A stretch of DNA of 63,022 bases, the filler included, from Asterionella formosa (Eukaryota), in NCBI GenBank assembly GCA_002256025.1. It is 24 parts of 24 records of this genome, joined end to end, with 100 filler letters (N's around TTAATTAATTAA, not from the genome) between each part and the next. Parts side by side here need not be neighbours in the genome. Positions count along the whole stretch, not along the records: positions 45,096 to 46,635 come from NKIB01002007.1; 23 more parts are not named here. The stretch is one strand, 5' to 3'. Under the pieces are notes generated by a model, which saw only the letters and a program-made list of their open reading frames with translations, was not told the DNA's origin and ran no database searches. This document shows positions 38,206 through 51,555 of the stretch, piece by piece. Both the position numbers and the translations under genes were made by a program. How positions within the stretch are numbered: position 1 is the stretch's first letter; each line of letters starts with the position of its first letter.

Positions 38206-38533
38206 CTCATCCACCTGATGGTTATTTACGACTTCTTGCGCATTGGTGGATGCAATCATTGAAAGACTACCGGTGCGTTTTTGCATCATTGCTAGCTATT
38301 TCAATAAACTAACTACGTCTACTTCCGGTCGACAAATAACTAATATCTGTCGTACCAAAAGAGTTTGATCAATTCATTAAGCAAACCGATCATGACTATT
38401 GCATCCACTTTGTTGGAATTGCTCATGGGCGTATNNNNNNNNNNNNNNNNNNNNNNNNNNNNNNNNNNNNNNNNNNNNTTAATTAATTAANNNNNNNNNN
38501 NNNNNNNNNNNNNNNNNNNNNNNNNNNNNNNNN

Positions 38534-39371
38534 NTTGCCGTGCACCCTGACATGAAGAGCCACACCGGTGGCGTGATGTCTTTTGGAACTGGAGGCATCA
38601 TATGCAAGTCGACCAAGCAGAAATTGAACACAAAGAGTTCGACGGAGGCTGAATTTGTGGGCGCCAGCGATTATCTCCCGAACACGCTGTGGGTAAAAAT
38701 GTTTCTTGAAGCACAGGGATACAAGATTCAAGAAAGTTTCTTCGAACAAGACAACGAGAGCGCAATTAAACTCGAGAAGAACGGACGAATTTCGGCAGGG
38801 CCAAAGTCTCGGCATATCAACATCCGCTATTTCTGGATTAAGGATCGATCGGTAGATGAAGGAATCACCATTCGCCATTGTCCAACGTTGGAAATGTTGG
38901 GGGATTTTTTTACGAAACCACTGCAAGGAAACCTGTTCAGAACATTCCGAAATGTGCTTCTAGGAGCTGCGCACGTCGATACCCTGACTGCCAGTTCCCT
39001 GGCAACAGCCGAGGAGCGTGTTGAAAAAATTCGAGCTGACTGCCACAGGACAGGCGTGAAGGGTATAGTAGACACGAGAGAGTACAGTACTACAGTTAAA
39101 ACCGTACAGCCGCTACCAAGAGTTACCTGGGCTGACGTGGTAAAAGGCACAACGCAAGGAAAAGCAATCAGAGGTCAAGAAAAAATGCTAAAATGCAGTG
39201 TGAGTAATAAGAGTGTTTCGAGACCATTATCTCGAAACAATCCAGTTAGTAAAGTGAAAGTTTAAGTTTTGACAACTTCCTCGTTGCTATCAATTTCATC
39301 AACTGTATTCGATTAACACAGTACTAGGTTCAAGGCCTACGATACGGTCGAATACGGTAGTTGTTACAACA
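38534..39371 (+). mobile_element. 3' end of a Ty1/copia (diatom CoDi-like) element: RNase H, PPT and 3' LTR (39019-39371)
   Basis: HPDMKSHTGG, KQKLNTKSSTEAE, QDNESAI, SRHINIRYFWIKD and DFFTKPLQG. Purine tract GAGGAGCG abuts a segment bounded TGTTG...CAACA. The pol ORF runs into the LTR and stops at 39265. Confidence 0.9.
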
Positions 39372-45094: not shown

Positions 45095-46635
45095 NTCGAT
45101 TTCGCAGAGGAGTGATTGCCACGCGACATTGCCAAGGCCAGGTCAGCAAGTCGTTGCTCTTCCGTGAGTGGCAACAACGGGAATTCGACACCCTTCGTAA
45201 GTAGCATAGCGAAGCGTGACCAGAGCGGGTGGTAGGACAGTAGGGGTTGTAGTAGGTGTAGGTCTCTGAATTCCGATCCGATACTGAGTGGGGACCGTGC
45301 TTGACTGGTAATTGCCCATTGGATGTCGAGGTCAAATTGTGCTAGGATTTCCCAGTTGTGAACGGCTGCCTCATGACTCCATGCAAAACGGAAAGCCGGT
45401 GCATGCATGGTAGGTGAGCGTGTTTCCATGATGCGCTGAATGCATAGTATGCGTGTGATGTCTGTATGTGTTTCCCCATGACTGGCCTGGTCTGCTGGAT
45501 TTGATGCGGGTGGTGGTTCACAGGGTTCCTCATACCGAGGGGTGTCACCGGCTAAGTTCTCTGTCAGAGCCATAGGGGTGTCCGTGCTAATATTTTCGAC
45601 GTCTCGATGTCCGTGGATGCAATAGTGCGTGTCGATGTACGATGGTGACTTACCCATTAAATGTTGAATTTGTTCGTGCTGTGGGATTGAGTTATGTAGT
45701 GGTGGTGGATATGGCGGGGGTTTTGTGAAGGTTAATGAAGGTAAGGGCGGTAGATTTGGTTGCGTGATGCGAGGCGTGGAAGCAATTTGGTTTTCTATGC
45801 GCGCAAAAAATTTTGAGCTTGATGTGGGAAGTAATGATTGAGACATATTGGCAACAATACGAATCTTTGTTGCATCGACAATGGTTAGTGCTGGAATGGA
45901 GAGTGCTGTGCGAGCTACGAGTGATGACGAGGAACCGCAGTAGGCTGTTAATTGCTTCGAAATAGAATCATTTACAGTTACTCGGGCCTGCCCTAGTCAG
46001 TGTTGCGGATTCGAGTTGCGGATTGCTGGGGATAAGTCGCGAATTGCCTCGTTGAAAAATTTCGCAAAGGCTTTCTTGTTTTCCCCTGTTAACTGAACGT
46101 GTGCATCTTTCCGTTCGCAGTTGTCGATGCAGATCCCCGAAATCTGCCAGCGACAGCAGTTTGTGGCTCCGTTGACCTTTGGTGCTCGACGGAGGACCGA
46201 AGCTGGGAATGCGTCCCTGTAAAATACCCCTGGTGGTAGACGGAAAAGGATGTCTGCTTGAGAGTTTGTCACAGCCCGTCCGCGGGTGAAAGTATTGCTA
46301 GAGTTGAGTTGGTCCTGCTGGTATCCTTGCCTCGTGTTGTTGTTATGAGTGTATCTGCGTGTGTGGTCCTCAAAGTGGTCGTCTCTGGATCGTTTCTGCT
46401 GGAGAAAGAGTGCAGCAACCCGAGGGTGTAGTGGGGCAATCATCGGGTTTCCCACCGCAATCTGTCGCTGTTGCTGTGCGAAGTCAAGTAGTTGAAAGTC
46501 CATGTCGTTTACCGTTTTTGCGTAGCGTGAGTTTCGCCAAAAGGCTTGGATCATGTTGTCCATAATGGTGAGTTGGTGAGCAAAAAATCGGATGTCGAGG
46601 TCGGAGCAGTGTCTGTAGGTTGCCCGGTTGGCTTC
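45095..46635 (-). mobile_element. DIRS/Ngaro-type (tyrosine recombinase class) retrotransposon fragment: gag C-terminus (to 45997) and pol N-terminus in the same frame
   Basis: gag ends with a CCCH finger (CCRWQISGICIDNCERKDAH). pol has GSEFR..LQPLLSYHPLW..LLTKGVEFPL..RLADL..RGNHSSAK, the pre-RT block I associate with stramenopile DIRS-like elements. The RT core and YR gene lie beyond the contig. Confidence 0.7.
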
Positions 46636-50605: not shown

Positions 50606-51555
50606 CTAAGCAGAACAAGTCTTGCCAATTACACAAGAGCTGCTGCAGTTGCAAATCAGTGGTGGGCAAAAATAAATGCCCTGTATTGTACCAATATTAC
50701 ATGCTTCTGTTGGAACTGTCCCTGCAAAATTATTACTGTCAAGAGAAAATATGGCTGTCAAGAAAGTGAAATTTTAGAACAAATGGTCAAGAAATATAAG
50801 TTTCAGATAAGCAAAACTTACTCAATGAAGACATTAGACCAATTTCTGTGGGAATTGCACCAGTAAACATATTGGAATGAATCAGAAAATTACCGAGAAT
50901 TGTCAAATTACCAATTTCTTTGGGAAGTACACCAATCAATTGATTATCAAATAGATACAATTCTGTTAGACTTGTCAAGAGTCCAATCTCTGTAGGAAGT
51001 GTACCAATGAAAGAATTGTTAAACAACGATAGAAGTGTGAGACTTGTCAAGAGTCCAATCTCTGTAGGAAGTGTGCCATTGAAAGTATTGCTGGGCAAAT
51101 CTAGAGAAGTAAGACTTGTCAAGTGTCCAATCTCTGCGGGAAGTGTGCCAGTGAAGGTATTGTCATACAAATATAGAGAAGTGAGTCTTGTCAAGTTTCC
51201 AATCTCTGTCGGAAGTGTGCCATAGAAAGTATTGTTATACAAATATAGTTCAGTGAGACTTGTCAAGAGTCCAATCTCTGTGGGAAGTGTGCCATCGAAA
51301 GAATTGTCAAACAAAGACAGATAAGTGAGTCTTGTCAAGTTTCCAATCTCTGTTGGAAGTGTGCCATTGAAAGTATTGTTTTAAAAATCTAGATAAGTTA
51401 GACTTGTCAAGTGTCCAATCTCTGCGGGAAGTGTGCCAGTGAAAGAATTGTCATACAAATATAGAGAAGTGAGTCTTGTCAAGTTTCCAATCTCTGGCGG
51501 AAGTGTGCCATCGAAAGTATTGTTATACAAATATAGGTCAGTGAGACTTGTCAAG
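50606..51555 (-). pseudogene. Plant-type 24-aa LRR protein (72-bp tandem units), 5'-partial, with an in-frame TAA at 51381-51383; intron 50755-50821
   Basis: About 10 repeats of LTxLxLxxNxFxGTLPTEIGxLTSL. A GT..AG intron leads to TIFSLDSNNFAGTVPTEAC and a Cys-rich cap. Further exons are possible at 50015-50510. Confidence 0.85.

Follow-up and report, generated by a model that had tools for sequence, protein, structure and literature searches.

Readthrough of a stop codon between gag and pol is already known from murine leukemia virus, in which the Gag:Gag-Pol ratio is set by an in-frame UAG followed, after an 8-nt spacer, by a pseudoknot, in an element that also encodes a protease and an integrase (PMC3159437, PMC2194720). 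An in-frame gag-UGA-pol junction with a predicted 3' structure is likewise known from Tca2 of Candida albicans, a Ty1/copia LTR element; that junction alone gave no readthrough in a S. cerevisiae reporter and had promoter activity (PMC2194720). In the replicase of the RNA viruses Sindbis and Aura readthrough has been measured at the nsP3-nsP4 junction, where a type II signal combines UGA-CUA with a 12-nt spacer and a stem of 11 bp that has a 1-nt bulge on its 3' side and closes a 154-nt loop (PMC3159437, PMC13517186). Among tyrosine-recombinase (YR) retrotransposons, the Ngaro element of the stramenopile Cafeteria burkhardae encodes a Gag-like ORF1, RT/RNase H and then a YR, in an A1-[ORFs]-B1A2B2 layout of ~6-7 kb in which no methyltransferase is seen (PMC8547959). 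The words "readthrough" and "frameshift" do not occur in the accessible text of PMC8547959, and the corresponding portions of this and related papers (PMC3783388, PMC6681497, PMC4157794, PMC5633606, PMC7192593, PMC8226300, PMC12440569) give ORF layouts or use such words in unrelated senses. For elements of the DIRS order, readthrough is not reported in the literature searched, most subscription papers and Repbase lying outside it, and the search returned no readthrough study in diatoms.

The gag-pol junction in Asterionella formosa

The window analysed here is a stretch of 63,022 nucleotides, filler included, in which small contigs of the Asterionella formosa assembly (the own genome, in what follows) are joined by N spacers; the junction lies within one contig of 1,540 bp (45096-46635). 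A reading of the sequence alone had proposed that a single TGA splits gag from pol, and this holds: on the minus strand, CAA CAC TGA (45999-45997) is continued by CTA GGG CAG, 50 sense codons follow in the same frame up to an ATG at 45846, and the frame is open to the contig end (Table 1). A conserved GSEFR...RGNH block (45279-45112) precedes RT/RNase H, which lie past the end of the contig. No relevant match was obtained with Pfam on the ORFs of the window, nor any match with Rfam on 45800-46100. On other small contigs of the window we noticed an ORF fragment at 38483-39265 (plus strand), which by sight we take to be part of a copia-type RT/RNase H, and another at 50787-51380 (minus strand), presumably, again by sight, from a leucine-rich-repeat protein.

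This junction has UGA-CUAG, an 11-nt spacer and a stem of 8+4 bp, and it resembles the Sindbis and Aura signals in UGA-CUA, in a spacer of similar length and in a 1-nt bulge on the 3' side of the stem; unlike them it joins Gag to Pol in a retroelement, its loop is of ~25 nt and its readthrough is predicted from sequence. With murine leukemia virus it would share the setting of the Gag:Gag-Pol ratio, but the stop is UGA, the structure is a simple stem, and neither a protease nor a DDE integrase was seen in the element. It resembles Tca2 in its in-frame UGA and predicted structure, although it belongs to a different kind of element. With the Cafeteria Ngaro it has in common the order of Gag-like ORF, RT/RNase H and YR, the split direct repeats, a size of ~6-7 kb and the lack of a visible methyltransferase, and it differs from it in having ORF1 and ORF2 in one frame, separated by a conserved stop of leaky type with a stem. 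We consider programmed readthrough the best reading of the junction, with a probability of about 0.8; what supports it is the conservation of TGA-CTAG and of the frame, the covarying 3' stem, and the equivalent readthrough, -1 and fused junctions of sister lineages.

Table 1. Features of the element in the window (positions along the whole stretch)
Feature	Position	Strand	Remarks
gag, 3' 212 codons	46000..46635	minus	5' remainder lost at contig end
Putative CCCH-type zinc-finger motif of Gag	46099..46158	minus	stops 33 codons ahead of gag stop
gag stop TGA, candidate readthrough codon	45997..45999	minus	TGA 24/25, TAA 1/25, sense 0/25 own-genome contigs (some may be duplicates)
CTAG(GG) context and 11-nt stop-to-stem spacer	45986..45996	minus	alignment of 11 sequences
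Conserved stem, 5' arm	45974..45985	minus	lower helix 45985-45978 (8 bp), upper 45977-45974 (4 bp)
Conserved stem, 3' arm, G45938 bulged	45935..45948	minus	family alignment
First in-frame ATG past stop (codon 51), not conserved	45844..45846	minus	family comparison
Splice-donor-like G|GTAAGT, phase 1, codon 115 past stop	45648..45654	minus	conservation; predicted intron start 45653
pol 5' part in gag frame: low-complexity linker, then GSEFR...RGNH block	45096..45996	minus	ORF and homologues

Conservation of the stop codon, its context and the frame

In the own genome, 24 matches were obtained at the DNA level and 27 at the protein level, and by our grouping of the alignment the copies fall into five subfamilies, all sharing TGA-CTAG. 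The junction could be compared in 25 own-genome contigs, some of which may be duplicate assemblies of one locus: 23 read TGA-CTAG, one TAA-CTAG and one TGA-TTAG, and a sense codon, which would have pointed to a private mutation, was looked for and found in none. When 11 representatives of six subfamilies (the metagenomic L067 included) are aligned, the TGA and the TAGGG at +5 to +9 are invariant in all of them while the flanks diverge, and the C at +4 is present in 10. As in type II signals, UGA-CUA is followed by an ORF in the same frame. In all nine sequences compared, the 3' arm lies 56, 59 or 65 nt from the stop, and since only these values occur the frame has been kept through indels.

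Between subfamilies A and B, synonymous divergence over codons 1-23 past the stop amounts to 0.35, against 0.68-0.84 in the pol core and in gag. As protein, codons 1-50 are weakly constrained (pN/pS ~0.75; gag, A versus B, 0.19). The stretch of B that matches codons 51-110 of A is 56% identical to it with a pN/pS of 0.41, and lies mostly upstream of the first ATG of B. The ATG at 45846 is not a conserved start of pol: it is absent from subfamily B, where codon 111 is the first ATG in frame.

Decay is seen in many own-genome copies. Intact copies have a gag of ~700 aa; in a near-intact copy of subfamily B and in a metagenomic copy, a gag frame of 719 aa is followed by TGA, a pol frame of 1,009 aa and a third ORF that overlaps. 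The Gag finger, which we assign to the CCCH type from its motif (no Pfam hit), is found 22-51 codons upstream of the gag stop in 24 of 24 in-frame loci.

The stem downstream of the stop

A helix between 45984-45973 and 45939-45928 had been proposed from the window copy. Its pairing was reproduced (11 of 12 positions, with 2 G-U), but the register proved to be wrong: over 11 family members it is 69.4% paired with no compensatory change, a value reached by 500 of 500 shuffles. The conserved register uses the same region for its 5' arm with another 3' partner. RNAalifold predicts an 8-bp helix, 45985-45978 / 45943-45935, with one bulged G and a consensus energy of -4.9 kcal/mol, 95.5% paired in 11 sequences. 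The upper 4-bp helix is 77% paired, and the two together 89.4%, against 16-52% when the partner is slid. The window copy has an A-C mismatch atop the lower helix, where most others have a pair.

Two compensatory pairs were found in the conserved register, C-G to G-C in L067 (one sequence) and A-U to G-C in B and L067 (three sequences), so that the expectation of covarying pairs held for this helix and not for the one first proposed. For a type II signal a stem some 7-12 nt past the stop, backed by covariation, would be expected; the predicted helix begins 11 nt past it. Support from covariation is modest, coming from two pairs among related sequences. In the window copy the RNA past the stop is not unusually stable, its 120-nt value (z +0.17) being equalled or bettered by 109 of 200 shuffles; over 100 nt the values are z 0.01 in A and z +1.19 in B. 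Several in-frame lineages gave no local stem signal.

Classification of the element

By structure, and following the definitions in the accessible parts of PMC4157794 and PMC8547959, the element is a Ngaro-type YR retrotransposon; the assignment is structural, the 35-row pol tree holding this clade alone with no reference Ngaro. Its layout would be A1 - gag - pol (RT/RNase H) - YR - B1 A2 B2. Direct repeats B1-A2-B2 of ~260 nt, spaced 590-620 nt, stand at the 3' end of two own-genome copies (L147, L153), other copies start at A, and L045 and L152 show A...B only; no single copy displayed all four repeats A1...B1-A2-B2 together. The YR ORF follows pol and overlaps it in L043 and L059, and the match of this third ORF to PF00589 is weak (E 0.001; 19.4 bits, under the 27.1 cut-off).

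The presence of RT and RNase H in pol is indicated by structure modelling (pLDDT 81.5), the best Foldseek matches being the RTs of MMLV, XMRV, foamy virus and Ty3 (E 1e-9 to 2e-8), and by neighbouring Atlas clusters that carry RVT_1 and RT_RNaseH (0.96-0.97). Pfam gave no relevant match on L043 or on any of 45 pol homologues, the RT being too divergent for it (0/45), and a PDB sequence-profile search with pol gave no match. In the model no domain is folded past RNase H (residues 793-899 mostly below pLDDT 50) and the listed fold matches are all RTs; on these grounds no methyltransferase is called, the absence of Pfam matches being uninformative here. Inverted repeats were not found in L058, L059, L147 or L153. 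Of the DIRS/Ngaro-type label given earlier, the Ngaro half therefore stands with the split direct repeats, while a DIRS1-like element is rejected for want of inverted terminal repeats and of a visible methyltransferase. A PAT-like element would have the split direct repeats, but was likewise rejected since no methyltransferase was seen.

Of 120 homologues just four carry an organism name, and all four belong to the diatom Fragilaria crotonensis (40-44% identity). Relatives also lie in contigs of prokaryotic genome bins (L138, L139, L140-L143), which are probably mis-binned eukaryotic contigs. Subfamily B assembles in two metagenomes (L058, L059) as a circle of 6,520 bp that is opened at a different point in each, which would reflect a circular intermediate or else collapsed direct repeats. 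The starts and ends of integrated copies (L045, L152, L052, L055, L147, L149, L153) coincide within a few bases on the circle (~1081-1088), a pattern consistent with insertion by the recombinase through a fixed site of the element into varied targets.

Junctions across the wider clade

To the best 80 of 331 matches of a metagenome scan we added 6 genome-bin loci and 14 own loci. Of these 100 loci, 57 could be classified: 24 have a single in-frame stop, 9 an overlap in -1, 2 are fused and 22 apparently separate, with no +1 overlap among the 57; the remaining 43 had no visible zinc finger (35) or no pol anchor (8). Eight of the 57, with a short or broken pol, stayed outside clustering and tree; among these eight, the tallies still include L067 and L095, and the heptamer count includes L131. 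L116 was given no class.

Outside the -1 clade, 26 non-fused lineages (33-100% pol identity) have TGA in 24 cases and TGA-C in 19, and in 24 of them the frame is open for at least 100 codons past the gag stop. Their contexts are CARYYA in 7, UGA-CUA or UGA-CGG in 9, UAG-GG in 1 and other sequences in 9, and the first three kinds correspond to the three readthrough types of Beier and Grimm as presented in the available part of PMC13517186. TGA is found in 16 of 17 in-frame lineages, whereas it makes up 3 of 10 gag stops of the -1 clade and, at the end of pol, 11 of 25 stops; for TGA-C the figures are 12 of 17 (the +4 C being absent in 5), 0 of 10 and 1 of 25, and Fisher tests on such counts overstate independence because the lineages are related. 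The first in-frame ATG ranges from codon 24 to codon 328 over the 17 lineages, with the frame open throughout. A summed probability of the open frame before the first ATG (log10 -22) was set aside as circular, the class being defined by openness, and the unconditioned tally of the 26 lineages was used in its place.

In the pol tree of 35 rows a single clade (support 97/98) holds the -1 type, and all the other major branches contain in-frame stops, those with a short intron counted; no order of events is claimed, since the tree is midpoint-rooted. An in-phase G_GAU_UUU heptamer, a candidate site of -1 ribosomal frameshifting in YR retrotransposons, was found in all 11 loci of the -1 clade tested (L082, L086, L088, L089, L093, L094, L109, L115, L117, L124, L131). 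The start of a G-rich stem was also noticed downstream of it. Gag finger and Pol lie within one ORF in 14 of 120 pol homologues, and the fused L068 groups with the window family, L070, L138 and L139 (100/96).

Two sister clades have stems of their own, each starting 7 nt past the stop, inside the 7-12 nt spacing given for viral signals in the accessible text of PMC3159437. The first, a compact 10-bp stem, shows 99% pairing and 5 compensatory pairs over 10 sequences (L073, L076, L078, L084, L091, L097, L112, L125, L071, L122), and in some members its loop may pair downstream as a possible pseudoknot; the second shows 98% pairing and 4 compensatory pairs over 5 sequences. In one member of the first, L084, the stop is TAG and the stem is the one shared by its TGA sisters. 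Scans of viral contigs returned 8 and 40 pattern matches, none of which was confirmed.

Taken together, the in-frame contexts, the stems, the -1 site and the fusions suggest that the junction behaves as a site of Gag-Pol rationing served by interchangeable means. With less confidence than for the window element, yet rather inclined to accept it, we extend this to the whole protist Ngaro-type group, which may obtain three proteins from one transcript through a recoding site that lineages have swapped among all three classical readthrough contexts, -1 frameshifting and plain fusion, followed by a splice choice between RT/RNase H and recombinase.

Splicing and RNA data

The phase-1 donor-like site of the pol linker is present in 32 of 35 loci, and wherever both donor and YR are visible (22 of 22 loci) an in-phase YAG stands 179-187 codons upstream of the RSCEY motif of the YR. 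The predicted donor-to-YR intron measures 2,216 nt in subfamily B; the window contains the donor (45654/45653), with the predicted acceptor outside it. The conserved donor thus probably also feeds the recombinase. In RNA-library contigs, in which rare isoforms are hidden, no spliced reads supporting this joint were seen. Of 15 in-frame lineages with a donor, 4 have their first in-frame ATG downstream of it, and there a spliced YR would need readthrough; the window family has ATGs at codons 51, 111 and 48, and in it the need would not be strict.

Among the "separate" lineages tested, 10 of 15 combine a strong donor with an acceptor that restores the frame, a short intron being predicted downstream of the recoding site. 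As a second predicted intron, these GT-AG introns would interrupt the pol frame 100-130 codons past that site (L095, L098, L100, L101, L103, L082, L088, L115, L124, L131), so that RT would require both recoding and splicing. L071 and L122 also have a second donor.

One RNA-library contig of 626 nt (run X1) spans 45649-46274 ungapped, with stop, context and stem unchanged; it may derive from DNA, and such contigs reveal neither strand nor rare isoforms. Of the four runs only this one covers the stop; the small shares in runs X2-X4 speak neither for nor against the reading. Its loose ends, at 45649 and 46274, branch into unrelated sequence, and the one at 45649 does not fit the splice donor and has no match in 143 loci.

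Proposed mechanism and alternative explanations

According to our reading, one genomic RNA would be translated from the gag start. Most ribosomes would stop at the UGA and release Gag, while a minority would decode it with a near-cognate tRNA, aided by CUAG and by the stem 11 nt downstream. The residue usual at a read-through UGA is Trp, Cys or Arg. Continuing in frame, these ribosomes would produce Gag-linker-RT/RNase H from unspliced RNA; RNA spliced from the donor to an acceptor close to where pol ends would probably yield Gag-linker-YR. A single leaky stop would then limit the supply of both enzymes with respect to Gag.

Unlikely, though the most credible of the alternatives, is a separate synthesis of Pol (and YR) from a downstream ATG, by an internal promoter or by termination-reinitiation, with context and stem serving initiation, packaging or reverse transcription. 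The weak constraint on codons 1-50 would suit it, as would the minor promoter activity of the Tca2 junction (PMC2194720, accessible part). In-frame ATGs precede the donor at codons 51 and 114 in A, 111 in B and 48 in L067, and in A and B a Met of its own is present in the YR ORF; internal initiation could thus serve the window family. Against this stand the wandering of the first ATG between codons 24 and 328 in a frame that is open throughout, and the first two ATGs past the stop in subfamily A, which are out of frame; the enrichment of TGA-C, the shared frame, the fixed 7-nt spacers and the -1 and fused sisters would also be left unexplained. Quite improbable is a non-canonical bypass, in which Gag-Pol would be made with distant sequences or element-encoded factors, local context and stem being insufficient. 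It has been argued for Tca2 (PMC2194720, as far as accessible), and the weak folding energy of the focal stem and the 9 of 26 lineages lacking a textbook context agree with it, whereas textbook contexts in the other 17 and covarying local stems in three clades do not.

Removal of the stop by an intron, with the TAG|G just past it as 3' splice site, would account for the invariance of TAG|G in the window family, and elsewhere in the clade introns of spliceosomal type appear to be used. However, splicing across the stop was looked for and gag has no conserved donor (codon -171, phase 0, in A; codon -177, phase 2, in B; none in L067), a YAG within 9 nt past the stop occurs in only 8 of 17 in-frame lineages, and the RNA-library contig crosses the stop with no joint listed; we give this explanation very little credit. 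Just as little can be given to a UGA read as sense, through a changed genetic code, selenocysteine insertion or RNA editing, despite the strong preference for TGA at the junction. An intact B element has 24 TGG and no internal TGA in 1,707 codons, which excludes a changed code; moreover, pol itself ends in TGA in 11 of 25 lineages, the TAG of L084 comes with the stem of its TGA sisters, and the RNA contig has no other letter at the stop. The decay of many own-genome copies and the existence of fused relatives could, finally, suggest a nonsense mutation inherited by dead copies, but this is refuted, the stop being shared by five subfamilies and by intact elements of other samples (719-aa gag, 1,009-aa pol).

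Conclusions

For the expression of YR retrotransposons the literature searched has so far offered ORF layouts only, and programmed readthrough, as read here, would provide a specific mechanism, with a compact candidate signal from a probable diatom. It also bears on annotation, where arbitrary internal ATGs are taken as the start of pol and a copy that is intact may seem broken. If the broader reading is true for the whole protist Ngaro-type group, it would give an expression mechanism to an order for which our searches found none, together with a natural library of interchangeable recoding signals.
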